46,830 nt of DNA from Bdellovibrionales bacterium (GCA_043739185.1 JAYUEN010000180.1:1-46830); one strand, 5' to 3'; shown: positions 19,207-45,913, numbered from the stretch's first letter. A program made the numbers and translations. The notes: generated by a model from the letters alone, not told the origin.

Positions 19207-19971
19207 TTAGGACTTCAAGAGTGAATGGAAATTCTCATTTCGGACATCATCAATTGAAAGCGTCCAGTATCTTTTTATTTGTTCAACGGAGCCCATGGCT
19301 TTGAACGATTGAACCGGAAGCATAAGGATGGAATACCCTAAACTTAGGTAATGATTGTAAAGCCTTGAGACATAATATTCTTCGGCAGACTCTTGCCTGA
19401 GTTCTTCGCTTGCCAACTTTTCAAAAAGATCATAATTTCTAAAAAAATAAAAACCAACAGAGCACCACTTTGAAATGCGTTTTTTCTCTTGAACCTCTAC
19501 TACCTTTTGCAATCTATTTTCTTCTGATACTCGGCAAAATGACCAAGCTTCGCCGGCTTCAATTGAACACGGAATAATTCCTTCAAATTGAGGTTCGGTC
19601 ATAGAGGATAAGAGATCCGGACATTCAAAACAAGAATCTGCATTGAAAATGGCAATCGAATTCTTACGGTCTATTAACTTAAGTGCAGTAACGGCCGTTT
19701 CAAGTTGGCCTCTGGTGAAATAATCAAGATCAAACCAAATCAAGTGGGCTTTGGAAATATTTTTACTGACCCGCTCTTGAATTCTCGAGAGGCGATCCTG
19801 GCGCTGGCTTACCACAATTATCTGATCATCATTTTGTATCGGCAAGGAATTCAGTGCATACTCTAAGAAGCTCAGCCCGTTTATTTGCAAAAGGGCTTTC
19901 GGAATATCCTGGCTAATTTCCTTTGTTCTGGTCCCCTTGCCCGCAGCGCAAATTATATAAGATATTGCCAT
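19207..19971 (-). CDS. Sugar-phosphate nucleotidyltransferase (BcbE-like GT-A)
   Basis: AAGKGTR..IPKALL, TRGQLETA, FNAD, EKKRIS...VGFYFF, EYYVS..YN; ATG 19971 overlaps the upstream stop. Confidence 0.85.
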   Translation of the reverse strand: MAISYIICAAGKGTRTKEISQDIPKALLQINGLSFLEYALNSLPIQNDDQIIVVSQRQDRLSRIQERVSKNISKAHLIWFDLDYFTRGQLETAVTALKLIDRKNSIAIFNADSCFECPDLLSSMTEPQFEGIIPCSIEAGEAWSFCRVSEENRLQKVVEVQEKKRISKWCSVGFYFFRNYDLFEKLASEELRQESAEEYYVSRLYNHYLSLGYSILMLPVQSFKAMGSVEQIKRYWTLSIDDVRNENFHSLLKS

Positions 19972-19972
19972 A

Positions 19973-21313
19973 TTAAGAGCCTGATCGCAGCGCATTTTGG
20001 CCGGCCAACATAAATTTTAGAAGTTGATTTTGATGGTTCAAATGCAGAGGCAAAAGGCTGTAAAACAACGAGGCCTCATACAGTCGCAGGTCATCTAACT
20101 TAATTTCAAATTCTTTCAAAAACTCCTTAAAATAAATTTCACTCAAGTTTAAAGCATTCTTGCCATATTCAGAGTTTCTAGCAATTGCATCGTAAGACCC
20201 AAGCGCACTATGACTCATTTTTGCCAGATCATATTCAATAGGACGATAACTTGAGCCTTCTGCCTCAATTCCTCGAGGGTCAATAAAATTTAATTCTTTG
20301 TCTTCAATATCATAAAGAATATTCGAAAAACATAAATCGCCGTGAGAAAAATAGAGCTGACATTGAGACGATTTGTCGATCAGTGCTTTGAGTTGAATTA
20401 AAAGAGCGTTCACGTCGGATTCAAAATGAGAGCCTGTGTGGGTGTTATAGTCACTGAGCAGGCTCTCGTAGTCGTTCAATTTGCGAAATTCCTCTAAGCG
20501 ATATTTTAGTTTTTCGATAAAATAATGTTCAAGTTTCTTTTTTAAAAGTTGATTTGTAATATTTAATTTGGGGAGCTTTGTAAAATATTTTCTGAGCTCA
20601 AAATAAAAGGCCTGCCAATCTGCGTCCGTAAATGAGTCTTCAAGAATGAGGCGCCCCAGATCAAAGCGGCGTAAATTGGTCATTTTGTATGAGGCAAACT
20701 TGTCTTCAATATGACTGTTAATTAATTTTGGGTAGTATGGTTTGAGTTTATCAGGGAGGGCATCAAAGAATCCAATTTCAGCTTCACCTTTTTGCTTCAA
20801 ATGACAAATTTTAGTGACAAACTGGCTGTCAAAAATGACTTCGTTGAACTGTCTAGGGTTACAGGCGAACTGAGAAAAATCAAAATCTTGAATTGCAGAA
20901 TTGAGATTCAAATATTCGCATTCGTAACTGGGAAACTCACCCGGAGAAATATTCGTAAGTTGATTCTGATCTAAAAACCAAGAGACATTCACGCAAGACG
21001 TTGAAATCTTGAGAAGCAGTTGATTTAATTTTTGCAATTGGGAGCTTCGAAAAAGATGTCCGCATGACAATGCTAAAGTGCAGGGAGAGAGAGTGTTTTG
21101 AGCCGTATGCCAGATATCTGAAGGCGTTTCGGGCCAAGCCTCATCTTTTAACATCCAATTAATTTGCAATTCATTGGTTATATTGTGTGGGCTCAAAGCT
21201 TGGTGCTTCTCTAGATTTTGAACAGAATGTATTTGGCGTAATTTATTTCGGACCGCAGATTTGAGGCTCAATTGATTATAAAATATGATATTAACTTTCC
21301 CAGGACTCGCCAC
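19973..21313 (-). CDS. APH/choline-kinase-like phosphotransferase (capsule-biosynthesis type)
   Basis: HGDLCFSNIL, FIDPRG, YDLAKMSHSALGSYD and SLLPLH motifs. Confidence 0.82.
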   Translation of the reverse strand: MASPGKVNIIFYNQLSLKSAVRNKLRQIHSVQNLEKHQALSPHNITNELQINWMLKDEAWPETPSDIWHTAQNTLSPCTLALSCGHLFRSSQLQKLNQLLLKISTSCVNVSWFLDQNQLTNISPGEFPSYECEYLNLNSAIQDFDFSQFACNPRQFNEVIFDSQFVTKICHLKQKGEAEIGFFDALPDKLKPYYPKLINSHIEDKFASYKMTNLRRFDLGRLILEDSFTDADWQAFYFELRKYFTKLPKLNITNQLLKKKLEHYFIEKLKYRLEEFRKLNDYESLLSDYNTHTGSHFESDVNALLIQLKALIDKSSQCQLYFSHGDLCFSNILYDIEDKELNFIDPRGIEAEGSSYRPIEYDLAKMSHSALGSYDAIARNSEYGKNALNLSEIYFKEFLKEFEIKLDDLRLYEASLFYSLLPLHLNHQNQLLKFMLAGQNALRSGS

Positions 21314-21314
21314 T

Positions 21315-22061
21315 TTATACTTCCTTCGAAGGGCTAGTGCGAATGCGCCAAACTAAAAGTGTTCGCAGGGCTTGCCAGCCCACATTAAAACTTTTTGCAT
21401 TTGAGATTTGATCAACTTCTCGCCACGAAATGGGAACAAAACAGAGGCGGCAATGATTCTCAATTATATTAAGTAAAAGATCCATATTGAAAGTAAATTG
21501 ATTTGAATAGGTTTGGTATTGCAAGTTTGCTAATGCAGAAAGTTTAAAGCCATTTAAGCCTGAACCTAAATCTAGTACCTTGGTGCCGGTCAGGATGGTG
21601 TAGGCAATATTTAAAATGCGATTACCAAAAGTTCGTAATTTCGAATAGCCAAGTCGTCTTGAATTTTTCATGAATCTTGAGCCAAGTACGGCATCATATC
21701 CCTTTTTCAATTGAGATATAATCATTGGGATTTCATTGGTGTCGCCCTGATCATCTCCGTGAAAAATTATTATATGAGAATAATTTTGCGCCAAAGCGAG
21801 TGCAAATGCCGCTTTGTGAGTGCCGCCGAGTCCAAGATTACTTGAGTTGACCTGAACTTCCGCCCAGTCTTCAATTTGCGCCAGCAAAATATGCTGATTT
21901 GCAACGTCAACTGTTTTGTCCGGACTTTGGTTGTCGAGAACTAGAACTTTTTTAATTTCAGGCAATTGATTTCTATTTTTCGAAAGCTCCGAAAGGACTC
22001 TTGAAATTTGACGTTCGCAACGATAGCAGGGGATCACCAGAAGAATTTCAATTTTATCCAC
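21315..22061 (-). CDS. GT2 glycosyltransferase (DPM/DPG-synthase-like)
   Basis: VIPCY, LDNQSPDKT, NLGLGG, HGDDQ, VLGSRF, DLGSG; GTG start at 22061 inferred. Confidence 0.9.
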   Translation of the reverse strand: MDKIEILLVIPCYRCERQISRVLSELSKNRNQLPEIKKVLVLDNQSPDKTVDVANQHILLAQIEDWAEVQVNSSNLGLGGTHKAAFALALAQNYSHIIIFHGDDQGDTNEIPMIISQLKKGYDAVLGSRFMKNSRRLGYSKLRTFGNRILNIAYTILTGTKVLDLGSGLNGFKLSALANLQYQTYSNQFTFNMDLLLNIIENHCRLCFVPISWREVDQISNAKSFNVGWQALRTLLVWRIRTSPSKEV

Positions 22062-22105
22062 AGGCTTAGTTTGCCTCGTAGCGATGAATCGCGCAAGATA
22101 AAAGC

Positions 22106-23638
22106 ATGAAATGGTTGATATACTTAGTTGCTTCACTGTGGCCGTGGATTGGCTACGCAAAATATCCGGCTCATAATCCGTTGGTTATCATAAGCGGATT
22201 TATGGCATCTTGCATCCTGGTTTTGATTTTTGCTTGGGCCCCAAGAGTGTTTCAGATTGTGCGACAGGATTTTGATAGCTCTAAGAGAATTGTTTTTGCT
22301 TTTGTCTTTTTCATTCAAGTTTTGCAAATTATTTTATGTTTTCCTGGCAAGGTCAGCTATGATGACCTTGCTTTTATTCAGGATCTTTCTTTAGGAAATA
22401 TTTCGCCACATAGTTCAAATAGTTATTCTCTACTACTTCAGGCTTCACATCTTATTTTTTTTTCGGCCCTACGTATTTCGATATTGAATCTTATTTTCTA
22501 TTTATTTGTTCTTTTTCTTTTTTTGCGCCTGCTGCCCAAAAAACTTCCGGTCTGGATGTCGATTGGAATTTGTATTCTATTTTGCTTTCCACTTGCAACT
22601 GCTTTGGTGGTTTTTGAAAGTCGCGATTCTATAAATTCAATTTTGCTTGTTTGGTGGTGTTTAGGTTTGTGTGGCTTGAATTCTCAATTCAAGAATGATC
22701 CATGGTTTCACCTTTATTCGTTAGGATTACTCACTCTAGTTTTAGGAGATATGCGTCCCGAAGGTAAAATTATTGTAGTTCTGTTCCCGATCGCCGTTTG
22801 TTGGATCAAACAAAAAAAATGGGGATATTTTGTCAATTTGGGGTTGATAATGCTGTCGACCAGTTTTTTATGCAATTGGATTCCCCAAAAAGTATTTAAA
22901 TTTGATTCCTTCTCTGAAAGGTATCTTTCAACAACTGTTATCAATCCCTTGGGGTATGTTTTTCAGAAAAAAGGTATGAATGCGGCAACCAAAGACGAGC
23001 AAATTGAGTTGGAGCGTTTTATGAGTGTTCAATATTTAATTGAATTCTATGATCCATTTGAAATAGCGCCATATCACCGAGGCGGCATAAAAAATTTAGT
23101 TACAAGTGAAGATTTTAAAGCATTTCAGAAGGTGGCACTATCAATAATCATGAGAAATCCAAAACTGTTTTTAGAAAATCGCAAAATGATGGCTTCTCAA
23201 TTGTTGAATTTTGAAGGACATCCCTATGTTATGTCAGATAACAGAGCCGAACTTTTCGATAAGTTTGGGAATGCAGCTGCCTTTTATTCAATTGATTATC
23301 ATCCATTTCACTCGCTTTACCGAGAAATATATGACGCGTGTTTAGAGAGATTAATTTATGGTTTGCCACTGTTTTTTCGCTTGCTGCTTTCAAGTTGCTT
23401 GGTGCCGATTTTAGTAATGTTTTTTATGCTATTTGATCAAAAGCTGATTTCCCCTCTTTTTTGGTTGGGGTTGGTGAACTTAGTTCGATTGGGCGCGATT
23501 TTGTTTACGACTCCTGCGTCTCAATTCAAATATATAACTTCAATTTGGTTGGTCGGTTGGATCATGCTTATATTTTTATTAGCGGTTCCGTTCAAGACTC
23601 AGATCGCCGACAAGATCAAAGGTGAAAAGCTAGATTAA
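22106..23638 (+). CDS. Polytopic membrane protein, possible GT-C-type glycosyltransferase
   Basis: About 11-13 hydrophobic segments, PG..SYDD loop after an early TM, large periplasmic loop, Q.KY near the C-terminus; divergent from the GT2 gene. Confidence 0.6.
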   Translation: MKWLIYLVASLWPWIGYAKYPAHNPLVIISGFMASCILVLIFAWAPRVFQIVRQDFDSSKRIVFAFVFFIQVLQIILCFPGKVSYDDLAFIQDLSLGNISPHSSNSYSLLLQASHLIFFSALRISILNLIFYLFVLFLFLRLLPKKLPVWMSIGICILFCFPLATALVVFESRDSINSILLVWWCLGLCGLNSQFKNDPWFHLYSLGLLTLVLGDMRPEGKIIVVLFPIAVCWIKQKKWGYFVNLGLIMLSTSFLCNWIPQKVFKFDSFSERYLSTTVINPLGYVFQKKGMNAATKDEQIELERFMSVQYLIEFYDPFEIAPYHRGGIKNLVTSEDFKAFQKVALSIIMRNPKLFLENRKMMASQLLNFEGHPYVMSDNRAELFDKFGNAAAFYSIDYHPFHSLYREIYDACLERLIYGLPLFFRLLLSSCLVPILVMFFMLFDQKLISPLFWLGLVNLVRLGAILFTTPASQFKYITSIWLVGWIMLIFLLAVPFKTQIADKIKGEKLD

Positions 23639-34074: not shown

Positions 34075-34719
34075 ATGTCAAGATATTCATTTATTTTAGC
34101 TACTTTTGTATTATTCGCTTTTGCAAACTTGCAGGCCCAAACACCTGTTACAGGGGATGAAGTAGTCCCCCATTTTGCGCAAGTTGCGCCCGGAATTTAT
34201 CGTGGTGGAACTCCTGAGCTTAGTAACGGAGTTGCCTACCTACATGAGCAGGGAATTAAAACGATCATCAATTTGCAGGGCGCAGACCTGGTTTTAAAAT
34301 ATAGCGCTTCAGAGCGCTCAGATAGTCGTAATAAGGAAGGCGAAGCGGCAGTTCAATTGGGCATGAAATATTTTAATTTGGCAATTCCGGCAGCGGCTGA
34401 TTTTTCTGATGCTGATAAAGAGAATATGGGAAGAGCCGTTCGTATTATGAGTAGTCCTGAGTTTCAGCCGGTTTACGTGCATTGCAAGCTAGGAAATGAC
34501 CGAACTGGCGTTGTGATTGGCCTATATCGTATACTTTTTCAAGATTGGACTGCTAAACAATCGAACGACGAAATGACCGAAAATGGTCACAGGGGACTAA
34601 GAGGATTTTTCACTCCATACTTGAGCCCATTTTTGTTTCGCATTTCTGATGAGAAAGACTTTGCACTAAAAGGTAAGCCAGTTGAGGATCAAAGTTTTTT
34701 TGATGCCTTGAAAAACTAA
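34075..34719 (+). CDS. Secreted protein-tyrosine/dual-specificity phosphatase (Siw14-like)
   Basis: PVYVHCKLGNDRTG (HCx5R), IYRGG.P, GIKTIINL; signal peptide. Confidence 0.9.
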   Translation: MSRYSFILATFVLFAFANLQAQTPVTGDEVVPHFAQVAPGIYRGGTPELSNGVAYLHEQGIKTIINLQGADLVLKYSASERSDSRNKEGEAAVQLGMKYFNLAIPAAADFSDADKENMGRAVRIMSSPEFQPVYVHCKLGNDRTGVVIGLYRILFQDWTAKQSNDEMTENGHRGLRGFFTPYLSPFLFRISDEKDFALKGKPVEDQSFFDALKN

Positions 34720-34728
34720 GGCTTCACA

Positions 34729-34757
34729 TTGACTTTTCTAGTGCGGCGCGCTATATT
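34729..34757 (+). promoter_or_regulatory. sigma70-like promoter
   Basis: TTGACT-N17-TATATT upstream of the GGAG RBS and ATG 34788. Confidence 0.55.
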
Positions 34758-34787
34758 CTTGGGCCCTTACACAATTTCGGAGATTCA

Positions 34788-35723
34788 ATGAAGAGAATTT
34801 TGGCGCTCTCGCTTGCTGGTTTTTGTTTTTTACCTTTAGTCGCTCGCGCGAGTATATGTCGACCAGCTTCGCCGGCTGAATATTTGGTTTTTAGCAGAGG
34901 CGATCTTCAATATGAATCAAGCGATTTTCAAGGTCTTACTGGCGCAGGTTCAAAGGTCACGATGAAGGATTTTAATATCCATCGCAGTCCTCCGGCTTCA
35001 GGCTGTCCTTCACTGATAGCAGGGAGCGATGTTAGTCTCGTTGATGGCTCTATACAGGGTGGCGGCGTTCACTCAGGCGGACACATACGATTGAGACGTG
35101 TGAGTGTTCAGGGCGAACTCAAGGCCCTTGGCGGAGTTTCAAGTATTGACTCGAATACAACCGGATCGTTAAAGGCACAAAGCAGCTCTGTTGAAAGTTT
35201 GGTTTCGACTTCTCGATTTTTTGTAAATCAGTCGCGTCGTTTTTCAGAAATGCCAGCTAAAGCATATTCAAGCTCAAGCAATAATATTAACTTCGAAGCT
35301 GAGCCGTCGGGAATGAGTGTATTTCAAATTTCTGCTGAAAGGCTTGCGCAAAATTCAATTATTCGCCTTCGGGGCTCCGCTCTTTCTTGGATCGTAATAA
35401 ATGTCTTGGGATCAAATGCATCTATACGTGCGCAAGATATTCGTCTTGAAGGTGGCATTGGGTTTGGCCGAGTTTTGTTTAATTTTGTAAACGCAACTGA
35501 TCTCGATATTACCGCTAGCGGGGAAATTCATTACGGAATTCCTGCGACGATCCTGGCCCCACTTGCAGCTACGCAATTTTGGAATGGACTCATTAGCGGT
35601 GGCCTCTATATTGGGAGCCTCTGCGGAAATGGCCAAGTCAATCCTGGCGTTTTTAGCGGATGGTTAACTGAAGCCAATGTCGATGCGCCGGTTCCTGCTT
35701 TACGGTGCCAATATTGCAAGTAA
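34788..35723 (+). CDS. Choice-of-anchor A family secreted protein
   Basis: SDFQG...G, IVINV.G, VLFNF.NAT.L, TILAP.A, NG.I.G pattern. Confidence 0.75.
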   Translation: MKRILALSLAGFCFLPLVARASICRPASPAEYLVFSRGDLQYESSDFQGLTGAGSKVTMKDFNIHRSPPASGCPSLIAGSDVSLVDGSIQGGGVHSGGHIRLRRVSVQGELKALGGVSSIDSNTTGSLKAQSSSVESLVSTSRFFVNQSRRFSEMPAKAYSSSSNNINFEAEPSGMSVFQISAERLAQNSIIRLRGSALSWIVINVLGSNASIRAQDIRLEGGIGFGRVLFNFVNATDLDITASGEIHYGIPATILAPLAATQFWNGLISGGLYIGSLCGNGQVNPGVFSGWLTEANVDAPVPALRCQYCK

Positions 35724-35764
35724 TTGGTAGCAAGAGCTTTCACCCTTTGCCTCTAGGACCACGC

Positions 35765-37003
35765 ATGATTCTTAAAATTCTCACATTTTTGATAGCACTT
35801 TCATCCTCGGCATTGGCGGCCCCAAATGCCGAAGTACGTCTGCATTCAGAACCCGAGAGTTCTTTGCTTGCGCGCTTGCAGTCTATTTTGAGTTCACAGA
35901 ATGAAATTTCAATTGAAGCCTTTTATTTAGAAAATGATTCGGTCGCAAATTTTTTGTTGTCTCAATTGGCAAATCAAAAGAAGCAGTGGCCAGCATTAAA
36001 CATAAGAATTGTAACCGATGCTTGGGGATCGAGTTCGCAGCCGCTTGAGAATATTTGCTACTGGAAGAACCAGGGACTCGATTGGAAGAACTTTAATCCA
36101 AGCACGGGTTTAAGTCAGGTTTTTAATCAAGAGCGTACCCACCGCAAAATTTGGTTGAGTGATACGGGTCTTATTGTTGGCGGACGAAATCTAGCCGCTG
36201 AGCACTTTAAAAAAGAAAAGCTGGATTGGGATCTTGAGGTGAAAGCCGAAGCCAATAGTCAGATATTAGCTGGGGCGAAAAGTGCTTTTCAAAAAATGTG
36301 GAGCTTGAGTCAAGAGGTCAATTGTTCGAAGTCAAAAAATCAAGCGAACATCAAGATGAATCAAAAGGAAATTGAGGAAATTTTAAGTGAAGTTAAAATT
36401 CCGGCGTGGCATAGCGCTTACCTAAATTGGCAGACAGAGGCCCACAATCAAAACCAGTTGGTAGCAAAAGAAATTCTTAGACTATTTAAAACGGCAAAAC
36501 AGAGCTTGATATTAGACAATGCCTATTTTATTCCTCCTCGTGCTTTTAATAAATTATTTCAAAAGTTCGCGCAAAAGAAACTAGACATGAGCTTTTATCT
36601 CAGCGGGCCTCAGCCCAATTTGATTTGGCAGGGTCAAATTACTCAATGCCTATCTGCTCCTTACCAAGAGGACTTAATTTCTCAAGGGGTTCAAATTTAT
36701 CACCCCATCGAAGAGGTTCTTCATAGCAAGGCCTTTCTGATTGATGGCCAAATCCTGGGGATTGGCTCTTTCAATTTAGATTATCGTTCCGCCAACTGGA
36801 ATATTGAAGATGTCATGGTGGCTACTGAGGCTCCAGAATTGATTGCTGAATTTAAGGAAGCTCGGTCCCTAAGACTGAAGCGCGCATTGTTAGTAAAGAA
36901 TTCGCAAGATTTGTGGAAACAAAAAGGCGAACTTGATCACGAAGAGCTTGAATGCCGTGACCATGGCCAGGATTACAGTTCGCTTCTAAAGTATTTTTTC
37001 TAA
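35765..37003 (+). CDS. Secreted phospholipase D / cardiolipin synthase-like protein
   Basis: Two HKD motifs, HRKIWLSD..GGRN and HSKAFLID..GSFNLD.RS; signal peptide from ATG 35765. Confidence 0.9.
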   Translation: MILKILTFLIALSSSALAAPNAEVRLHSEPESSLLARLQSILSSQNEISIEAFYLENDSVANFLLSQLANQKKQWPALNIRIVTDAWGSSSQPLENICYWKNQGLDWKNFNPSTGLSQVFNQERTHRKIWLSDTGLIVGGRNLAAEHFKKEKLDWDLEVKAEANSQILAGAKSAFQKMWSLSQEVNCSKSKNQANIKMNQKEIEEILSEVKIPAWHSAYLNWQTEAHNQNQLVAKEILRLFKTAKQSLILDNAYFIPPRAFNKLFQKFAQKKLDMSFYLSGPQPNLIWQGQITQCLSAPYQEDLISQGVQIYHPIEEVLHSKAFLIDGQILGIGSFNLDYRSANWNIEDVMVATEAPELIAEFKEARSLRLKRALLVKNSQDLWKQKGELDHEELECRDHGQDYSSLLKYFF

Positions 37004-37038: not shown

Positions 37039-37054
37039 ATAGGTTATTTACTAT
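37039..37054. promoter_or_regulatory. Candidate LysR autoregulatory box
   Basis: ATAGGTTATTTACTAT dyad, similar to the box upstream of the isonitrile operon. Confidence 0.5.
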
Positions 37055-37083: not shown

Positions 37084-37929
37084 ATGTTACCAAGTGCAAC
37101 TGATCTTGAATATTTTTTAGAAGTTTCGCGCACACTTAATATCTCAAGGGCAGCCGAAAGAATCGGAATCACGCAGCCAACACTCACACAATCTATTCGA
37201 AAGCTCGAGTCCTCCGTCGGTGCTCAACTCCTCATTCGAACTAGGACGGGGGTTCGCCTTACTAAATCAGGACAGAGAATATCAGGTCAAGTTTTAGCGC
37301 TTCTTGAATCCTGGGCCAATGTTCAAAAAGAGGCGCAAGAAGACGAATTTGAGTTGCAAGGCAAATTTCGCGTCGGAGTTCACCCATCGGTTGCAAGATA
37401 TACTCTGCCGCAATTTTTTAAGCTTCTATCTCGTAAGGCCCCGCGCGTAGAGCTTGAATTGATTCATGATCTCTCTAGGAGAATTACCGATTCAGTAATT
37501 AACTTTAAGGTCGACCTCGGTTTTGTAATCAATCCTGTAGAGCATCCAGATTTGGTATTAAAGAAGCTTTGTGAAGATCAGGTCACAGTTTTTGAATCAC
37601 CAAAAGAAAGATACGGTAAATTATTGTTCGGAGACCCTGAGCTCATTCAAACTCAATGGGTTTTAAAGCGTCTGAAAAAGGCTTCCCTTGATTTTTCAAA
37701 CTTTGTCCCGGCGCCAAATCTCGAAGTGGTTTACTGTATGGTAGCAGCAGGGGCGGGTTATGGGGTCCTACCCGGAAGGGTCGCCAAGAGCGAGGCTGGA
37801 GCAAAATTGAGTGTCGTCGATGTCAAACTGCCAAGTTTTAAAGACGAATTGTTCTTAGCCTATCGAAAAGAAGTTATGAGTTCTCGTGCCGCCAAAACCC
37901 TTATCGAGTGCGGTAGGGAATGTTTCTAG
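37084..37929 (+). CDS. LysR-type transcriptional regulator
   Basis: LEYFLEV....NISRAAERIGITQPTLTQSIRKLE..VG..LL.RT..GV.LT..G HTH plus substrate-binding domain. Confidence 0.96.
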   Translation: MLPSATDLEYFLEVSRTLNISRAAERIGITQPTLTQSIRKLESSVGAQLLIRTRTGVRLTKSGQRISGQVLALLESWANVQKEAQEDEFELQGKFRVGVHPSVARYTLPQFFKLLSRKAPRVELELIHDLSRRITDSVINFKVDLGFVINPVEHPDLVLKKLCEDQVTVFESPKERYGKLLFGDPELIQTQWVLKRLKKASLDFSNFVPAPNLEVVYCMVAAGAGYGVLPGRVAKSEAGAKLSVVDVKLPSFKDELFLAYRKEVMSSRAAKTLIECGRECF

Positions 37930-37933
37930 AGAC

Positions 37934-37971
37934 ATAGGTTTTGACCTATATCAATGATAGATCCTAATTAT
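37934..37971. promoter_or_regulatory. Candidate LysR recognition and activation sites for the isonitrile operon
   Basis: Perfect ATAGGT-TTTG-ACCTAT (37934-37949) followed by ATAG-N7-TTAT (37957-37971, T-N11-A). Confidence 0.6.
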
Positions 37972-38025
37972 TATACTTAATGCCACAAGTTTTCTATTAC
38001 TAGCTTAAGAAGTAATGGAGGTCTT

Positions 38026-39012
38026 GTGCAAAATAACACTGATTTTACAATTTCAAATTCGGTTCTCAAGCTAGTTTATGAAATGCGAAATCTCTCGCAA
38101 AAGCATTTTCTATCTGAAAATGATTCGGCGGCAGTGCAAATTCAAGAACAATTGCAAATTGCTAAAATTCAGAAATTCATCAATCAGAATGACCCCATAA
38201 AAATGATCCTGCCCGCATTTCCGGCCAAATCACCAAATCCGAAAAAAACCGTGAGCAGTCGTCCGGACTATGGTGAGGTGCTAGCACTTAAGCGTTTGAA
38301 TAATTTATGTTGCAGGATTTCTGAAATTTACAGTCCAGGAGCTCGTCTGATCATTTGCTCGGATGGGCGGGTATTTAGTGACCTTGTCAAAGTATCAGAT
38401 AGTGCGGTCGACTTGTATGGCCGTGAAATACGAAATATCATTGAAGAGCACGAGTTGAGTTTTCTTTCGACGTTTAGCTTAGAGGATATTTTTTCAGCTC
38501 ACGACTATGATTGGATGCGGACGCGCCTGGTAACTGAATACGCCGAAAGCATCGAATGTTTACGAGCGAGAATTAAGCAGGAGCCTGAGGCCAAATCATT
38601 GTTTAACGGAATTCACCGTTTTATGTTTGAGGACCAACTATATTTGAGCGCAGGAAAGTCGAAAAGCGAAATTAGGGAGCTCTCTAAACAACTCGCTTAC
38701 GAAGTCATTCAAAGAAGCAATGCTTGGAGCAAATTAGTTGAGAAAAAATTCGCGGGTGCACTTAGGCTTTCAATTCATCCACAGTCGCCACTTTCAAATA
38801 AAATCGGAGTTTCACTTTTAGCTTCAAGTGATAATTGGCGAACGCCATGGCATTCTGTGACTGTTTTTGATGGCAGTGAGTTTTACTTAAGCTCACGCGA
38901 AGCCGCTGAAGCAGCAGGCGGCAAACTTTCTTATGCATATCACAAATACCCTTACTATCTTGTCCAAAATAAGAAGACTGGGGCTTTGGCTCAGAAAGAA
39001 GCGGTTTCATGA
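38026..39012 (+). CDS. pvcA: L-Tyr/L-Trp isocyanide (isonitrile) synthase, PvcA/IsnA/Dit1 family
   Basis: MILPAFPAKSPN..K, PDYGE..AL, IYSPGARLIICSDGRVFSDLV, RSNAWS, ALRLSIHPQ, KIGV.L, W.TPWH; GGAGG RBS with GTG start. Confidence 0.95.
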   Translation: MQNNTDFTISNSVLKLVYEMRNLSQKHFLSENDSAAVQIQEQLQIAKIQKFINQNDPIKMILPAFPAKSPNPKKTVSSRPDYGEVLALKRLNNLCCRISEIYSPGARLIICSDGRVFSDLVKVSDSAVDLYGREIRNIIEEHELSFLSTFSLEDIFSAHDYDWMRTRLVTEYAESIECLRARIKQEPEAKSLFNGIHRFMFEDQLYLSAGKSKSEIRELSKQLAYEVIQRSNAWSKLVEKKFAGALRLSIHPQSPLSNKIGVSLLASSDNWRTPWHSVTVFDGSEFYLSSREAAEAAGGKLSYAYHKYPYYLVQNKKTGALAQKEAVS

Positions 39013-39797
39013 TTTATCAAAGAATGAAAACTTTCGGATCTATCACGCAAGCCGAGAAAATGAAAGCTTCTGATCTCAATTTGAGTGAGCTTGCTAAAGA
39101 GCTTTCACAAGATAAACTTCTTGTAATTCGCGGGCTGGCTCCTCTATCAAGTGAAGAGTTTTTAAGCCTCTGTTCTCGCTTTGAAGGGGTGTCTCCTATG
39201 AGTTGGAGTTTTGGACCCGTTATGGAGATGAAGGAAAGTCAGGACCCAGAAAACTATTTATTTTCTAGAGAGCGTGTTCCCTTTCACTGGGACGGCGCTT
39301 TTTATAAAGTGCCTGACTATCTTGTGTTTTGTTGTATTGAAGCGCCCACTGAAAACGCAGGGGGTGAGACACTTTTCACTTCTACGACAAAAATATTAGC
39401 AGATGCCAGCCCCGCCCAGCTTGATGTTTGGCAGCGCATGATACTAACATTTGAAACTGAAAAACGAGCGCATTATGGTGGTAAAATTCAAGGGCCTTTA
39501 GTTCAAAAGCATCCGCATACAAAACAGAATATTCTGCGCTTTGCAGAAGCTGTTGAGACCGAACTAAATCCGGTAAGTTTACAAATTAGCGGTGTTTCAA
39601 ATGACGAAGCAAGTTCGGCTTTAACAGAGCTCACGCAGAAAATCTACGATCCACTTTATTGTTATAGCCATAAATGGCAGGTGGGCGATTTAATTTTTGC
39701 AGATAATCATAGTCTCATTCATGGTCGGACTGCCTTTGAATTAAATTGTCCGAGGCATTTACGTCGAATTCAACTCATTGCAAATTTAAAGGAGTAA
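39009..39797 (+). CDS. pvcB: Fe(II)/2-oxoglutarate dioxygenase, TauD family (PvcB/IsnB-like)
   Basis: W.FGPV.E, VPFHWDGAF (HxD), GGETLF, HKWQVGD....DN..LIHGR..F, RHLRRIQ; ATGA overlap with the synthase gene. Confidence 0.92.
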   Translation: MIYQRMKTFGSITQAEKMKASDLNLSELAKELSQDKLLVIRGLAPLSSEEFLSLCSRFEGVSPMSWSFGPVMEMKESQDPENYLFSRERVPFHWDGAFYKVPDYLVFCCIEAPTENAGGETLFTSTTKILADASPAQLDVWQRMILTFETEKRAHYGGKIQGPLVQKHPHTKQNILRFAEAVETELNPVSLQISGVSNDEASSALTELTQKIYDPLYCYSHKWQVGDLIFADNHSLIHGRTAFELNCPRHLRRIQLIANLKE

Positions 39798-39801
39798 TTT
39801 T

Positions 39802-41013
39802 ATGGATCTTTTTTCTCAGAAAATAAATTCAAGCCCATTTGAATTCTCAAAAGCCATCAAGGCTAAGGGGCCGATCTTTTTCTCTCCTCTGGAGCAATTT
39901 TGGGTGGTATCAGACTACGATTTGGCAGTAACTGTTTTAAAGAGTGGCGATTTCAGTGCGGATCGCTCAGCGTTTTTTATGTCCAAAGCCTCAGGCTGTC
40001 CCTTTCATAAAGTCGCCAATTTTTTTGGAGTTGTAAAAAAAATGATGGTGACCAGTGATCCTCCTGATCATACTCAAAGACGACGTTTGGCTAGCTCTGG
40101 GATGAATGATCAAATTTTAGATCAATTTGTGCCCAATGTAAAAAGCGTCGTAGGAAATTTGCTGGATCAAATCAAAGATCAAACAAATATTGAATTTGTC
40201 GAACAGATAGCTTTGCCATTGCCTAACATCATTTTGGCAGATTTGTTTTCAATACCACCAGAGAATCGTCGCGATTTTTATCGTTGGTCAAATTATATGA
40301 CACAATTTTTCGGCGGCGGTTCAAGTGAAATTATCCGTGATGCTGAAAATGCAGATGATGGCGCTTTGCAGTTGTCTCAATATTTTACTAAGCTCATGAA
40401 AGAGCGCAAACAAAATTTGCAAAACGACTTTATTAGCAATCTTTTGCGAGCTCAAGGGAGCTTAGACGATTCTGAGCTCATTTCTCAAGCTGCGATCATG
40501 TTGGTTGCAGGCACGGTAACCACCACAGATCAAATCTGCAATAATCTCTTTTCGCTCTTGAAATCTGGCATTTATCAAAAGCTAGTTCAGGATCAAAATT
40601 TGCTCGATCAGGCAATTGAAGAGGCCACTCGCCTTGATCCTTCAGTCAACTTCATCTTTCGTGTTGCAAAAGTAGATAGCGTCTTGGCGGGTGTTGAAAT
40701 CAAGGCCGGTCAGATGGTCTTTATTTCGAATCATGCGGTCAATCGAAGTGAGAAAATGTTTAGTAAGCCTGATGATTTTGTTTTAGACAGAGAAAAGAAC
40801 CCCCATCTTTCTTATGGCTCTGGGATTCACTATTGTTTAGGAGCCAGGCTTGCCAGAATTCAGATGCGTGAACTATTTGGCCAGCTGATTTTGCGTTATC
40901 CGAATTTGAGTTTGGATTCAAAATCGAATCCAATTAAAAAACATCAAAGCTTAGCCTTTTCGGGTTATGAAACTCTGCCTCTTCAGTTGATTAATTCAAA
41001 GGAGCAAATATGA
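39802..41013 (+). CDS. Cytochrome P450
   Basis: DPPDHT..RR, I-helix AGTVTT, EEATR (ExxR), heme motif HLSYGSGIHYCLGARLAR. Confidence 0.96.
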   Translation: MDLFSQKINSSPFEFSKAIKAKGPIFFSPLEQFWVVSDYDLAVTVLKSGDFSADRSAFFMSKASGCPFHKVANFFGVVKKMMVTSDPPDHTQRRRLASSGMNDQILDQFVPNVKSVVGNLLDQIKDQTNIEFVEQIALPLPNIILADLFSIPPENRRDFYRWSNYMTQFFGGGSSEIIRDAENADDGALQLSQYFTKLMKERKQNLQNDFISNLLRAQGSLDDSELISQAAIMLVAGTVTTTDQICNNLFSLLKSGIYQKLVQDQNLLDQAIEEATRLDPSVNFIFRVAKVDSVLAGVEIKAGQMVFISNHAVNRSEKMFSKPDDFVLDREKNPHLSYGSGIHYCLGARLARIQMRELFGQLILRYPNLSLDSKSNPIKKHQSLAFSGYETLPLQLINSKEQI

Positions 41014-42173
41014 AGGTCATTTTTTGTTTACTGTCTGAACAAGGTCATATCAATCCCTATATTGGTCCCGCCCAAGCCTTGAAAAAAATGGGCCATGAAG
41101 TGCTCATCAGTTCAACTGGCGAAATTTCAGATCAAATTAAAAAAAGCGGATTGAGTTTTACAAATGCTTTGGTTCAGCCACAATCTGCGGCCGGCCCCAA
41201 AGGAAAGGCACTTATTGAGCTTATTGAAAATCGCAAAGAACATCGTGCTTTGATTGAAAAGTTTTTCTTAAAGGGAATTCGCGAGCAAGTTGCCCCTATA
41301 CAAACTTGGCTCAAGAACGAAAGGCCCGATGTCCTGGTTATTGATCCTATGAATTACTCTGCAATTATTGCAGCCGAGTTGCTTAAGATCCCGTGGGTTT
41401 CGATGTCGAGCTCTTTGACCTCAGTGATTTCAGATGAAATGAAAAGTGATGTACTCGAAATAATTGAGAGTCTGGCTCCGGCTCGTTTTGAGATATTTGA
41501 AAGCTTTGGCTTGGCGCCAAAATTTCGCGCCGTTGATTGTTTGTCTTCGTTTTTAAATATTAGTTTCACGACCAAAGAATTCATTCTCGATGCACCTGAA
41601 GATATTTGTTTGGTGGGGCCCTCTGTACCGCTTTCAAAACGAGGCGACGAGGTCAATGTGAGAAAGATACCTGGCGATAGGCCTGTGATTTATGTTTCAT
41701 TTGGCAGTCAAGTTTTTCATTACCCAGAGCTTTTTAAAAAGATTCGCGAGGCTTGCAAAAATTTAAAGTTGCATTTGGTGATGTCAATTGGAGATTTAAA
41801 AGATGATGTGAGCTGGGAAGATGAGGAGTTCGTGCATTACTACAAATATGCTCCGCAACTCGAAATTTTGCAGGCGGCCTCCCTATTTATTACTCATGGC
41901 GGCGCCAATTCAGTTATGGAGAGTCTACGTGCGGGCGTACCCATGCTCATTCACCCGCTATGCAATGATCAACATCACCAAGCACATTTTATTGAGAAAA
42001 GTGGTGTTGGACGCAGTCTCAATCTCAAAAATGCATCTGCGCAAGAAATTACAAAAGAAATTCTAGAGATTTTACAGGATCGCAAAATTAAAGTGGATCT
42101 CGAAAAGGTTACAAAAAGTTATCAACGAGATGGTTCAGCCGAAGCTGCTAAGTTAATAGTTCAAAGTTTGTAG
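41010..42173 (+). CDS. Family 1 (UDP/TDP-sugar, MGT/OleD-like) glycosyltransferase
   Basis: GHINP N-terminal His motif, VIYVSFGS, APQLEIL..ASLFITHGGANSVMESL..GVPML..P...DQ; ATGA overlap with the P450 gene. Confidence 0.94.
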   Translation: MKVIFCLLSEQGHINPYIGPAQALKKMGHEVLISSTGEISDQIKKSGLSFTNALVQPQSAAGPKGKALIELIENRKEHRALIEKFFLKGIREQVAPIQTWLKNERPDVLVIDPMNYSAIIAAELLKIPWVSMSSSLTSVISDEMKSDVLEIIESLAPARFEIFESFGLAPKFRAVDCLSSFLNISFTTKEFILDAPEDICLVGPSVPLSKRGDEVNVRKIPGDRPVIYVSFGSQVFHYPELFKKIREACKNLKLHLVMSIGDLKDDVSWEDEEFVHYYKYAPQLEILQAASLFITHGGANSVMESLRAGVPMLIHPLCNDQHHQAHFIEKSGVGRSLNLKNASAQEITKEILEILQDRKIKVDLEKVTKSYQRDGSAEAAKLIVQSL

Positions 42174-42186
42174 AAACGAATCTTGG

Positions 42187-43395
42187 TTAAAGAAATAGTT
42201 CACGACAGAGCCGAGGTTTAGAAAGGCTCTCTTCTTTCTGAGCTTTTCTTAAAGACTTGATGTTTTCGTCCTTAGTTCGGCGCTTAAGGTGGTGCGCGAT
42301 AAATTGGTCCCGTCCATTTTCGCCGGCTAGAATCTCGAGGGCCGTGACTTCTCCACCAAAAATTTCAGCGCGATGAGTATCAATTGAGATTACTTTGCGT
42401 CCATAGTAGGGATGCTTAAAATTAATTTTCGAATCAGGGGTTGGGCTATGACCGATTACAATCTGATCAACATCAAACCAAGCCAGAAGCTCTTTTAATT
42501 CCTTTCGAGTTAAACCATGCTCAGGCCGTCGGCTGGCATTTTTTCCGGTCTCGATCTTAAAGCTTCGATCTGAAAGAGGGCCGGTTACTTCTGTGAATTT
42601 TTGTTTTTTTGAAAAATCCTTTGGGTCTTTTTCTAAATCTACGATCCAGTCAAAATGCTTTGAGGGGGGATAGCCCGTTAGATTTTGAAAGAACTTAATA
42701 AACTCTCGACCAATGACATTGATATCTCCCGGATTCTGCATTGTACGAGACATATCAAGCATCGGGCGCACAAGGCCCGCATGAATAATAAGGGTGCGAT
42801 TGACTATGGTAAAAAAGTTGTTGCCTCTGAGTTCGCTTGCGTAGCGTCCATTGGCTGCGCGAAACATATGTCTTATGTGTTCATCAATTTCATTAAAATC
42901 TTTTTTTCCTGAACTGCCATCAGCGCGAGCGAAGAGTTCTTTCTCGGCTTTATCCATATGAGATTCATCACCGCCAATTGCCATCAATTCGTGGTTGCCG
43001 AGATTGATTTCAAGACTGCCTCCGCCTTGAGTAATTTTGTCTCGAAGGCTGCCGTAAACAAAATCAAGAATCAATTCAGAATCTGGATCACCATCGATGA
43101 GGTCACCATTGATGACGAGTTTCGTATCTCCGCCAATCCAATTTTCATTTCGATCAAATAGCTGCAGTTTTTTTGCGGTGAGTATTCGTAGTAAGGCTTT
43201 CATATCGCCGTGAATATCGCTGATAACAATGCTTCTGCGAACATTGGTAAAACGAAATGCAATTTGATCACGAGCATATTCAATTTGTTCAGCAGCCATT
43301 GCAATATTGAAATTAAATGAGAGCAAAACTAAGCAAGTTGTGAAAATGGCAAAGCTTCGCGAAGCAATTGATTTTTGGATCTTAAAGGGCGACAT
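42187..43395 (-). CDS. Secreted calcineurin-like metallophosphoesterase (Shewanella-like phosphatase type)
   Basis: SDIHGD, GDLID, GNHE, HAG, VIGHSP, IDT; signal peptide; ATG 43395 preferred because TTG 43413 lies inside the promoter. Confidence 0.9.
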   Translation of the reverse strand: MSPFKIQKSIASRSFAIFTTCLVLLSFNFNIAMAAEQIEYARDQIAFRFTNVRRSIVISDIHGDMKALLRILTAKKLQLFDRNENWIGGDTKLVINGDLIDGDPDSELILDFVYGSLRDKITQGGGSLEINLGNHELMAIGGDESHMDKAEKELFARADGSSGKKDFNEIDEHIRHMFRAANGRYASELRGNNFFTIVNRTLIIHAGLVRPMLDMSRTMQNPGDINVIGREFIKFFQNLTGYPPSKHFDWIVDLEKDPKDFSKKQKFTEVTGPLSDRSFKIETGKNASRRPEHGLTRKELKELLAWFDVDQIVIGHSPTPDSKINFKHPYYGRKVISIDTHRAEIFGGEVTALEILAGENGRDQFIAHHLKRRTKDENIKSLRKAQKEESLSKPRLCRELFL

Positions 43396-43408
43396 AAACC
43401 TATGAAAC

Positions 43409-43424
43409 TGCAAGTCTAAAGCCA
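43409..43424 (-). promoter_or_regulatory. sigma54 -24/-12 promoter
   Basis: Minus strand TGGCTTTAGACTTGCA (GG-N10-GC). Confidence 0.7.
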
Positions 43425-43559
43425 GTTGAACTTGCTCTTGGAGGGGATGAGGCTTAAGGGAGGCAGGTTAGGCTGAAAAACTATTGGACGGAGGGCCTGG
43501 AATCGACTTTTTGGGTGGGTTCATTTTTTCTATTGGGCAAGTTTTCAAATATTGAATTC

Positions 43560-43622
43560 GAATCAGTTTTAACGGCAGCAACAGCGGTCAACTGTTTGGC
43601 GGTTGCGGTGGTCAGGTTTCAG
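43560..43622 (-). repeat. Dispersed ~63-bp intergenic element, copy C
   Basis: Reverse complement CTGAAACCTGACCACCGCAACCGCCAAACAGTTGACCGCTGTTGCTGCCGTTAAAACTGATTC. Confidence 0.85.
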
Positions 43623-43794
43623 TGCTTCAGCTCGTACAAGCCAGCAAGCTCGCTCGGCTGACCCGCTCTAAGAGCCACAAATGGTCTACGATATTGCAAA
43701 ACTTACTTGGCCTAAACTTCAGGTAAATGCCTTATTTTATTTGGCGGTGGTGTGAAAATTGAAGCTTTTTGTGGCTAAGATATGAGGCGTTTGT

Positions 43795-44868
43795 ATGATG
43801 AAAATTAAAAGTTTAATTTGTTTATTTGTTGGTTTGAGCGGCCTTTTAGGCTGTACGAAGTCGAAAGATGGTGCGGCTCCTCCGCCGGAGGCGCCCAATG
43901 TTCAAGTATTGTCGCAAATTGCTGGTGGTACTTTTCTTCACGGAAATTCTTCAATAAATTTTTTGTTTGATGGCAGTTTTGAATTCAATCTTGAATCGGA
44001 TGTGCGTTACTGGGATCCAAATAAAAAAAATAATGATCGCAGTAAAGAATCAGATGCTCTCTGTATGCTTAAGCTAAATGGCCAAAGTTCTCAGCTAAAA
44101 AAAGAAGAAACCGATTATCCGTATCTTTATACCACTAAATTAGAGGTGACTGGTGCCATGGTGACGAGCGCTAAAGTCTTGCGTTCAGACCTTTCAAGTG
44201 TGCCTGCTAACGAGATTTGCGCAGGATTTGTATCAGAGATTTTGAAGTCCAAAAAATTTAGTCAAAGATTGGTTGAGTTTGATTCGAATCATTTGGTGTT
44301 TTTTGGTATGAGCTTTCCTATTTATAATGTAGATACTTTTTCAAACGATAGCAGCCTCTATTATTCCGAGCTTCATAAATTAAGAGAGCGCTACTCTAAA
44401 AGAAAAGCAGAATGGGCCTATACGTATTTTGTTAAAGAGGGCGCAAAAGTTGACGTGACTGCAGAAGTAATGCGCGACCTCGACGGAGAATATTTACCTG
44501 AAATTGAAATGAGTAATGTCGAGTCACTAAAGCTTAAGGTCGATGCCAAACAAAATAACATTAGTATTTCACTGGGTGCCTGCGGAACCACCCATGCCGG
44601 CGAAATCGAATTGATTTATTTTGACAGCTTTGGCTTAGAGCTCAAATTAAAGCCTCTCAAGCGCATCACTCGTGATTCTCAAACTTCGAATCATTCCCGA
44701 GATTGTGAAGGGCAACGCCAAATTGCATTGAATTTGTCGAAGTATACTTTGGGAGTCAGTTATTTTAAGCCAAAACTTGAGACTAAAACAGAGAGATCTC
44801 GACTGAGCTTTGAATTCCCATCGGATGCGCATTTGACATCAATTGGATTTATAAAGACTGGTCTCTAA
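43795..44868 (+). CDS. Hypothetical lipoprotein
   Basis: LLGC lipobox, Pro-rich linker, GAGG RBS. Confidence 0.8.
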   Translation: MMKIKSLICLFVGLSGLLGCTKSKDGAAPPPEAPNVQVLSQIAGGTFLHGNSSINFLFDGSFEFNLESDVRYWDPNKKNNDRSKESDALCMLKLNGQSSQLKKEETDYPYLYTTKLEVTGAMVTSAKVLRSDLSSVPANEICAGFVSEILKSKKFSQRLVEFDSNHLVFFGMSFPIYNVDTFSNDSSLYYSELHKLRERYSKRKAEWAYTYFVKEGAKVDVTAEVMRDLDGEYLPEIEMSNVESLKLKVDAKQNNISISLGACGTTHAGEIELIYFDSFGLELKLKPLKRITRDSQTSNHSRDCEGQRQIALNLSKYTLGVSYFKPKLETKTERSRLSFEFPSDAHLTSIGFIKTGL

Positions 44869-44998
44869 ATTAAATATTGAATAATCGCTTTACGTATTTT
44901 ATACCGGATTAATTCCGCTTTAAATTAAAGTGCTGATAGATTTCACTGATCATAGGCCTTGCAGGAGAGCATTGCACCTCTCAAACCAAGGAGACCCT

Positions 44999-45913
44999 AT
45001 GAGATTTTCTTATTTATTCATTATTGCTACATTGATCTATTCCTTTAACTCTATAGCATCAACGCAGGATTATGTCGTTGGCGGTGAGCCGGTGAAATCA
45101 AATGACCCGATTCAGGCTTCAACTGTCGGAATTTTTGAGCCGAGCCCAGATGGGCAATCAGGTTCACTTTGCACAGGGACTCTCGTTCGTAAAGATATGG
45201 CGTTAACGGCAGCTCATTGTCTCTCCGGAGATAATGGTAAGGCCTCAGTGATCTTTGGTCCAAATCTTCACTCGGCTTTGGCTCCACATCGGACTATTCA
45301 AGAAGTAGCAATCAATCCGAAGTGGGCAAATCATTCTGAAAAGAGTATGGACCAAGGCGATATTGCTTTAGTGAAATTCAAGGGCGGTCTGCCTCAAACA
45401 TACAAACCAATTGCAGCACTTGGTTCCGAAAGAGAAATAAAAGCCGGTGGAGAAGTGACGCTTGCAGGATACGGAATATCAGATGCGCAAAACAAAACCG
45501 GAGCAGGTGAGCTTCGAAAAGCTCGGGTCAGAATCGAAAAAAATCGTCCGGGAAAAAGTGAAATGATTTTAGATCAATCTCATGGCCAAGGTGCTTGTCA
45601 TGGTGACTCGGGAGGGCCAGCCTTTCTTCGCCAAGGTAAACAGATAAAGTTGGCAGGGGTCACAAACCGAGCTTACCCAAATCATGCTCCTGATGATTGT
45701 GCTCACCGTGTGGTTTATACTAAAGTTCCAGCTTATGAATCGTGGATAAAAAGCAGTGAACGCAAATTAGCAAAGGCTTCAGAGCCAAACGCGCCACTAA
45801 AAATGAAAACTAAAATGACGAGAGTTGGGCATTTGAGGAATTCAAAAATACGCGTTCAGCATGCGCGGATTAGTCGAATTCGTAGCCATCACCAGAGAAA
45901 AATGAAATCTTGA
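44999..45913 (+). CDS. Secreted trypsin-like (S1) serine protease
   Basis: VVGG mature N-terminus, CTGTL, LTAAHC, DIAL, GACHGDSGGP; AAGGAG RBS before ATG 44999. Confidence 0.95.
   Translation: MRFSYLFIIATLIYSFNSIASTQDYVVGGEPVKSNDPIQASTVGIFEPSPDGQSGSLCTGTLVRKDMALTAAHCLSGDNGKASVIFGPNLHSALAPHRTIQEVAINPKWANHSEKSMDQGDIALVKFKGGLPQTYKPIAALGSEREIKAGGEVTLAGYGISDAQNKTGAGELRKARVRIEKNRPGKSEMILDQSHGQGACHGDSGGPAFLRQGKQIKLAGVTNRAYPNHAPDDCAHRVVYTKVPAYESWIKSSERKLAKASEPNAPLKMKTKMTRVGHLRNSKIRVQHARISRIRSHHQRKMKS

Follow-up and report, generated by a model that had tools for sequence, protein, structure and literature searches.

Described isonitrile clusters and the locus in the window

The nearest described counterparts of the isonitrile (isocyanide) gene cluster analyzed here, which occupies positions 37,084 to 42,173 of a 46,830-nucleotide stretch of DNA from a Bdellovibrionales bacterium (GCA_043739185.1 JAYUEN010000180.1:1-46830; the whole stretch is called the window), are found in Legionella, where the isonitrile synthase and desaturase genes isnAB are associated with a helix-turn-helix (HTH) protein and a cytochrome P450 (Tobias et al. 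2016, PMC5126622; lpari_01861-63, with the P450 in 5 of 15 species, in its supplement). The L. parisiensis and L. anisa loci (L024 and L031) have, like the window, the order isnA-isnB-P450, with 43-50% identity, a P450 of the same family and a divergent LysR gene, but no glycosyltransferase (GT) follows the P450 in the Legionella loci examined. Because these isnAB-HTH-P450 loci are the triad described below, its architecture is already in print; the accessible parts of PMC5126622 name no substrate, product or range outside Legionella, and many isnA clusters remain uncharacterized (PMC8252389). An earlier sequence-only reading of this DNA held that a P450 combined with a GT1 matches none of the known bacterial architectures; isnAB with a regulator and a P450 is published, but we found no described product: a search of the full-text literature, with most subscription papers outside its reach, returned no product, tryptophan (Trp) assignment or Bdellovibrionota report for the triad. 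Brady and colleagues are said to have expressed several isnA clusters in 2007, possibly one from Bdellovibrio, which could bear on novelty.

Other described pathways resemble the locus in part. The IsnA/IsnB pair from environmental DNA (eDNA) and AmbI/WelI/HpiI 1-3 of the hapalindole pathways, which make indolyl vinyl isonitrile, share with the window a Trp-type IsnB signature and the IsnA motifs, although the loop after HWDGAF is one residue shorter in the window IsnB than in eDNA IsnB/AmbI3-type enzymes; the prenyltransferase, cyclase and Trp-biosynthesis genes of the hapalindole, ambiguine and welwitindolinone clusters are absent here, where a P450 and a GT stand instead (a Pfam scan of the 37 open reading frames [ORFs] of the window found no prenyltransferase and no Trp or isoprenoid biosynthesis genes). 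Fungal xanthocillin (XanB/XanG) and yeast Dit1/Dit2 (PMC5974471) combine an isocyanide synthase, a desaturase and a P450 with a proposed oxidative dimerization; the likeness is one of gene content, and the xanthocillin system differs in its tyrosine (Tyr) substrate, its eukaryotic P450s, its fused XanB, and the hydratase and methyltransferase in its cluster. Rhabduscin, byelyankacin and sinapigladioside (isnA-isnB-GT) share the vinyl-isocyanide core and a GT of the GT1 fold (glycosyltransferase family 1), but are Tyr-derived, of the type with HWDG-MY in IsnB (MY-type), and made without a P450. Paerucumarin (pvcABCD, PtxR; PMC3639982) comes from a LysR-regulated operon with a ring-oxidizing third step, but PvcB keeps the carboxylate and has L107/C188, and flavin enzymes (PvcC/D) take the place of the P450. 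Hazimycin (PMC13647977) is a bacterial isocyanide dimer formed by oxidative coupling, but it is a di-isocyanide dityrosine, derived from Tyr, with a biaryl link and no vinyl group. On a Streptomyces plasmid we observed an MFS-asnB-P450-isocyanide synthase cluster without isnB (L244, 2266-7903) that would fit a hazimycin-type amide dimer; its P450 is 28% identical to the window P450 and lies outside the triad family.

The conserved isnA-isnB-P450 triad

The conserved unit at this locus is the triad isnA-isnB-P450, in which the GT1 gene is not included. With an alignment of the P450 family we fetched 120 loci (78 from genomes and 42 from metagenomes, not deduplicated), and in 89 of these the P450 belongs to the family, whereas in 31 it is a distant one. 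In 73 of the 76 family loci with at least 500 bp upstream, isnB lies directly upstream of the P450 (the exceptions are L116, L130 and L131), and it stands beside none of the 31 distant P450s. The hosts are Bdellovibrionota, Legionellaceae, other Pseudomonadota (Kangiellaceae and Parachitinimonas), Elusimicrobia and the cyanobacterium Scytonematopsis, a wider range than the sequence-only reading could show, and in L037 IsnB and P450 are fused as one protein of 697 amino acids. From this linkage we consider it highly probable that the P450 acts in the pathway, on the product of IsnB. The expectation of an isocyanide pathway with a co-conserved P450 was thereby borne out, whereas the combination of P450 and GT, which the sequence-only reading took as the defining architecture, was not: it is the P450 that is conserved together with isnAB, and a close GT1 is a minority add-on (2 of 71 loci) confined to one P450 subclade. 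We accordingly rejected the four-gene operon as a conserved unit.

The features of the locus are as follows.

37039..37054, no strand: palindrome ATAG-N8-CTAT upstream of lysR, candidate LysR operator
37084..37929, plus strand: LysR-type regulator (PF00126 and PF03466), with a 79% identical orthologue at the same position in L049
37934..37949, no strand: second palindrome ATAG-N8-CTAT, upstream of isnA, candidate LysR operator
38026..39012, plus strand: isnA, IsnA/PvcA isonitrile synthase, leaning to the Trp type (NGIHRF), from PF05141, PvcA structures and motifs
39009..39797, plus strand: isnB, iron/2-oxoglutarate decarboxylase-desaturase with the Trp-enzyme signature, from the TauD profile and motif comparison
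39802..41013, plus strand: cytochrome P450 of the triad-dedicated family (p450 profile; heme Cys present; conserved acid missing from the I-helix, AGTVTTTDQ)
41010..42173, plus strand: GT1 glycosyltransferase of the YjiC/MGT-like kind, an accessory to one P450 subclade (UDPGT profile)

The five ORFs lie in a row on one strand, with catalytic residues intact where checkable. ORF calling confirmed the coordinates of four tightly packed co-oriented genes behind lysR, including the ATGA overlaps at 39009 and 41010 and the 4-bp gap (TTTT) before 39802; isnA starts at a GTG preceded by GGAGG, 96 bp after lysR. The family assignments of the sequence-only reading (isonitrile synthase, Fe-2OG enzyme, P450 and glycosyltransferase) are likewise upheld by catalytic residues and Pfam matches (PF05141, E = 3e-79; TauD, 1e-36; p450, 3e-31; UDPGT, 1e-21; LysR with HTH and substrate domains), and the closest solved structures are PvcA, PvcB/PIsnB (7TCL, a Photorhabdus-type IsnB), CYP109-type P450s and YjiC. 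Because the next gene is convergent and lies 13 bp past the GT stop, the 3' boundary of the operon is correct, and because the identical order recurs in other genomes the arrangement is not due to chance. The window is a complete contig of a 4.85-Mb genome that is 97.65% complete. The closest named homologues of the cluster proteins are Bdellovibrio proteins, and same-phylum sequences group with named Bdellovibrionota loci in trees; a predatory lifestyle of the host is no more than apparent. GC and GC3 of the cluster match those of the genome and neighbors (0.415 versus 0.418), and so give no compositional sign of recent transfer.

The window's phylum was also sampled evenly, with 401 genomes (the phylum sample). 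Of these, 29 have the P450, 59 have isnB homologues, at 61 places, and three have a close GT, which in two of them adjoins the triad (2 of 29 triads). No P450 family member was found on plasmids, where the best P450 matches are at most 33% identical; one of them, from a Nostoc plasmid (L240, 6974-8209; 31% identical, I-helix AGHLTTTDL, with the acid also lost and no isnAB nearby), may be an outlying relative. L130 and L131 are decayed triads with truncated isnA and P450, and the Kangiellaceae locus L037 (537-7260) combines a cNMP-binding/IsnA/DUF924 fusion and a second IsnA with its IsnB-P450 fusion. DUF924 (PF06041) adjoins the triad in 9 of the 120 loci, across several phyla (L019, L033, L034, L037, L039, L042, L105, L107 and L108), and is a candidate resistance or accessory protein; it was not found in the window's own genome.

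Substrate signature of IsnA and IsnB

The substrate, which the sequence-only reading had left open among Tyr, Trp and Phe, is probably Trp rather than Tyr, to judge by the residues of the IsnB pocket. The Trp enzymes eDNA IsnB, AmbI3, WelI3 and HpiI3 carry NYLF, PFHWDGAF, GGE[ST]LF, HYGG and R[FY]AE where PvcB has DHIF, PLHWDGMY, GGRTTF, HYSS and RFCE (PMC4236562 S4); the Trp-type pattern is our own reading of this alignment rather than a published rule. All five motifs are present in the window IsnB (NYLF, PFHWDGAF, GGETLF, HYGG and RFAE), and its iron triad and carboxylate Arg (H93, D95, H238 and R253) correspond to H101, D103, H250 and R265 of PIsnB. PIsnB itself has HWDGMY, GGRTTF and RYNE as in the Tyr type, but HYGG in common with the Trp enzymes. 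At the pocket positions the window IsnB has A97/F98/Y99 and A179 in place of M105/Y106, K/R107 and N/H188 of the PIsnB type, and Y99 and A179 in place of L107 and C188 of the PvcB type; the aromatic pocket of PIsnB is lined by M105 and Y106, and Tyr isonitrile no longer shifts the melting point of the variant M105A/Y106F/K107A (PMC9467999).

The signature runs through the family. Among 76 triad IsnB ORFs, 72 read AF at the variable pair, one VF and three are unreadable, as against MY in 6 of 6 IsnBs from sister clusters. In the phylum sample, an isnB of the AF/VF kind is followed by this P450 in 30 of 30 places and by a flavin monooxygenase in none, whereas the other 31 (29 MY, one MF and one unreadable) are followed by the P450 in none and by an FAD monooxygenase in 30; because kin are not independent, these counts reflect two ancient cluster types, not 61 events. 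MY-type IsnBs form one separate clade (support 100) and triad IsnBs their own group, in trees that hold no characterized Trp or Tyr enzymes, which were compared by motif only. The window's genome carries both cluster types. Its MY-type locus (L010; G000:C438, 548-7862) holds isnA-isnB, an FAD monooxygenase, an ATP-grasp protein, an MFS transporter and a LysR 43% identical to that of the window, and upstream of these lies a gene of the DOPA-dioxygenase family; isnA-isnB with the FAD monooxygenase forms a core that occurs in 30 of the 31 non-AF places of the phylum sample and is fused in L226.

IsnA agrees with a Trp substrate more weakly. It scores 267 bits against PF05141 (cut-off 26.4) and finds PvcA structures at E = 1e-59 to 1e-65, and all six conserved motifs of the published alignment are present (PAFPAKSPN, CSDGRVF, I.RF, RS.AW, RLSIHPQ and TPWH); for the L-tyrosine isonitrile synthase equivalog NF045653 it scores 245.9, below the cut-off of 600. 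NG-I-x-RF, as in IsnA/WelI1/I2, stands in 49 of the 50 readable triad IsnAs (68 examined), where Tyr-type loci have RA, RG, CG or LG.

AF-type IsnB also exists without this P450 (L241 and L245). L241 (6335-11344) is a Hymenobacter plasmid locus in which integrase genes flank an FAD oxidoreductase and isnAB of the AF type, the latter with long extensions; in L245 (5429-7869) an AF-type TauD gene neighbors a flavoenzyme resembling Trp halogenases, and isnA has no match within 15 kb. Searching with a cyanobacterial IsnB yielded 120 proteins (P0241-P0360), mostly unnamed or from Pyrinomonadaceae, all 120 with PFHWDGAF; some are labeled L-tyrosine isonitrile desaturase by their source, a label that the motif calls into question.

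P450 reaction, genes after the P450 and regulation

The P450 defines a family of its own (244 proteins at E = 1e-60 or better) and a single clade (support 99) against three outgroup P450s. ExxR is E274/R277, and the heme ligand Cys345 is invariant in 60 of 60 aligned sequences. The structural model has an ordinary P450 fold (predicted local distance difference test [pLDDT] score 93), with best solved matches at 29% identity or less; fold matches of the model are all alike (Z 37-46, 19-29% identity) and an Atlas search gave generic P450 clusters, so that fold searches cannot separate coupling from hydroxylation. The distinguishing feature is the I-helix, AG-x-V/I-TTT-DQ (V239/T240 and Asp243/Gln244 in the window). 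The position of the conserved acid, readable in 116 of 120 homologues, is Val in 72, Ile in 42, Thr in one and Ala in one, and in none Asp or Glu, with DQ four places on in all. PtmB and the Trp-diketopiperazine dimerases, which couple indoles, likewise keep the alcohol and have the acid changed to Val (PMC11573659), but act on other substrates; the likeness is probably convergent, because none of them is among the top sequence or fold matches listed.

The pathway that we tentatively prefer, as a possible rather than a probable one, runs from Trp through an indolyl vinyl isocyanide and P450 coupling to a bis-indole 'Trp-xanthocillin', which is then glycosylated. With the operon under LysR control, the isocyano acid would be formed by IsnA from L-Trp and ribulose-5-phosphate in a condensation and then decarboxylated by IsnB to 3-(2-isocyanovinyl)indole, both steps following established family chemistry; because characterized AF-type enzymes all decarboxylate (PMC11350588, PMC5947517), that compound, the indolyl vinyl isonitrile, which is active against bacteria in disc tests (PMC5947517), is the expected intermediate. 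The P450 would then abstract the indole N-H hydrogen and link two molecules, for example through the vinyl carbons that bear the isocyanide groups, into a bis-indolyl di-isocyanide; by way of C3 the indolyl radical could delocalize onto such a carbon, much as a phenoxyl radical may when xanthocillin forms. Ferredoxins encoded outside the operon would supply the electrons (Fer2 is matched five times in the genome, and this P450 is the only one found in it by tblastn). The GT1 of this subclade may glucosylate the product at the indole nitrogen or at some other nucleophile, for storage or to protect the producer. The sequence-only reading had required a hydroxyl for glycosylation if the substrate is Trp or Phe; this is not strictly so, since GT1 N-glycosyltransferases such as RebG are known. 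At 46 of the 71 loci with at least 500 bp downstream, no tailoring gene is recognized behind the P450, which can therefore make the end product. XanG and Dit2, the P450s tied to fungal isocyanide synthases, are proposed couplers (PMC5974471), and the literature searched gave no report of a bis-indole di-isocyanide scaffold (Trp xanthocillin). With somewhat less assurance we suggest that a widespread bacterial P450 family might make such a di-isocyanide, independently of XanG and the diketopiperazine dimerases, and that one subclade might N-glycosylate it and another acetylate it.

The two mechanisms put forward at the outset, hydroxylation followed by glycosylation and xanthocillin-like dimerization, are still the two live ones. 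Hydroxylation, which we hold to be somewhat unlikely but a close rival of coupling, would make the P450 a monooxygenase (ring C- or N1-hydroxylation, or oxindole formation) whose product the GT1 turns into an O-glycoside, an indole analogue of rhabduscin or byelyankacin, with GNAT-like genes acetylating the same handle elsewhere. The main arguments for it, which count against coupling, are that the capping genes immediately following the P450 are interchangeable and that the sister cluster has a flavin monooxygenase. In the 71 loci the next gene is a close GT1 in two (L048 and L049), GNAT-like in 18, DUF924 in three, HAD in two and unrecognized in 46; the capping genes often overlap the P450 by ATGA, and a GT1, GNAT-like or HAD enzyme suits a new hydroxyl better than a dimer. 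In the Tyr-type sister cluster an FAD phenol-hydroxylase-like gene takes the third position in 30 of 31 places (Pfam finds no flavin monooxygenase in the window operon). Known isonitrile GTs make aryl O-glycosides, and the invariant Asp243/Gln244 could stand in for the proton relay. Further strain on the coupling proposal comes from CYP114, which has Ala at the acid position (CYP114-A261D is mentioned; PMC11573659), so that acid loss is not exclusive to couplers, from P450Blt, which couples with Glu238 kept (PMC12002111), and from L116 (7248-9730), where the P450 and a GNAT-like gene have an unrelated gene and no isnAB in the 8 kb upstream. The lost acid is therefore a hint and not a diagnosis. 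Nevertheless, the change from acid to Val/Ile resembles indole-coupling P450s, most triads have no capping gene and the fungal precedents are couplers. The GNAT-like family (unannotated, with an invariant WT near the C-terminus; L051:9164-9736 and 17 other loci) overlaps or abuts the P450 stop in Bacteriovoracaceae-type triads and has weak acetyltransferase matches only.

It is quite unlikely that the P450 carries out another oxidation on the monomer or removes the isocyanide (beta-carboline/carbolinone cyclization, isocyanate formation or epoxidation), giving an end product that is no isocyanide. The non-canonical I-helix, an operon without a redox partner or transporter (window ORFs, Pfam) and the frequency with which isonitrile pathways finish as non-isocyanides (isothiocyanate, formamides) would fit, but nothing positive points to a specific reaction, and the gene clusters of the fetched loci include no recurrent isocyanide-hydratase-like gene at the triad.

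A Tyr (or Phe) substrate, giving true xanthocillin of bacterial origin, or a similar dimer of phenols, with sugars on the phenolic oxygens, we rate a little lower again. The phenol would be an obvious GT acceptor, and XanB/XanG provide a precedent. Several findings also pull away from Trp: the 97.65% complete genome has no match to tryptophan synthase alpha (TrpA, PF00290), so Trp would have to be imported; the AF/MY dichotomy is incomplete, an SpgD-like Tyr enzyme having a third pattern (HWDLSM); the Trp reference enzymes represent two lineages only, so that the signature may track ancestry; and RSNAW in IsnA is non-discriminating, being present also in an SpgA-like protein and in three of six sister-cluster IsnAs. 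On the other side, the window IsnB lacks every Tyr-type position (M105, Y106, K/R/L107 and N/H/C188) and agrees with the Trp enzymes wherever those are conserved, MY-type enzymes are a clade apart, and the same genome has a separate MY-type locus.

Very improbable is the notion that the P450 is a dead activator of the GT of the DesVIII/EryCII type, or the GT an unrelated promiscuous resistance enzyme landed by chance, as weak TIGR04515, TIGR04516 and EryCIII-like matches and the MGT-like GT might suggest: such activators have lost the heme cysteine, which is invariant here and led us to reject the dead activator, the scores fall far under the cut-offs (111.6 versus 343 for TIGR04515; 62 versus 440), the P450 mostly occurs without any GT, and close GTs, 48-59% identical, stand at the same place in Bdellovibrionota and Elusimicrobia.

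Close GT1 genes are limited to one P450 subclade (33 rows, support 99); all four of its members with informative context have one: the window, L049 (Bdellovibrio bacteriovorus strain kdesi, in which all five genes of the locus are present), G309/L170 and L048 from Elusimicrobia. Nine of the 16 best GT homologues, including the L049 and L048 proteins, appear to share a genome with a P450 of this subclade, which is circumstantial. His13/Asp112, H296-S301 (HGG.NS) and DQ at 320-321 are invariant in 14 of 14 sequences, the window GT aligns with YjiC, and the score for the macrolide GT subfamily TIGR01426 is 163, below the cut-off of 260. In 5 of the 120 loci, and in 5 of the 29 sampled triads, a divergent lysR is followed by another GT, with 23-28% identity. 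In a sample of 401 Enterobacterales genomes there were six matches, four of them isnA-isnB-GT loci; the window GT is 20-27% identical to the GTs of these four MY-type loci and 22% to an SpgE-like GT.

The two palindromes ATAG-N8-CTAT, inferred to bind LysR as candidate operators, are the only two in the 46.8-kb window (expected, 0.49), a count that is not significant alone because 7 of 100 shuffles reach two. Both are kept at the same places in L049, and among AF-type loci 9 of the 33 in which an adjacent lysR was found, and 4 of the 39 in which none was, have an exact palindrome before isnA (a rough comparison, in which distant LysRs are missed). LysR homologues of 31-44% identity adjoin many triads and Tyr-type sister clusters, and PtxR is a precedent for LysR control of an isonitrile operon (PMC3639982). 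A promoter and terminator scan of the sequence stayed at chance level (9 versus 9.1 and 7 versus 5.0).

The neighboring genes seem unrelated to the pathway: upstream (34075-37003), tyrosine-phosphatase-like, choice-of-anchor A and phospholipase D genes, and downstream (42187-45913) a convergent metallophosphoesterase and a trypsin-like protease. A row of genes on the minus strand (19207-22160), for a nucleotidyltransferase, a choline-kinase-like protein and a GT2, is probably a surface phosphocholine or glycan locus.

The suggested role in predation finds no support in the distribution: most of the triads that non-predators (Legionella and others) carry are intact, and a search with IsnA did not find the triad in 60 relatives, 34 from the same family, the matches in five of them being all of the Tyr-type (MY) sister type, a patchy distribution. 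The likely role would be an antimicrobial or copper/heme-binding defense, not predation as such.

New here are the Trp-type signature, the strict isnAB-P450 linkage beyond Legionella, the non-canonical I-helix and the limitation of the GT to a subclade. Few IsnA/IsnB end products are known, and the Trp side in the literature found comprises free indolyl vinyl isonitrile and the hapalindole family; to these the triad would add a third branch from Trp, distinguished by a P450 family of its own and present in 29 of the 401 genomes of the phylum sample. HWDG-AF versus HWDG-MY offers quick substrate sorting of orphan isonitrile clusters, and in this phylum predicts the third gene (P450 or flavin monooxygenase) almost perfectly. 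Whether the product is a dimer or a hydroxy-indole glycoside, three or four small genes would yield a new class of compound, and bis-indole coupling, if true, would give the Bdellovibrionota a defined small-molecule pathway.

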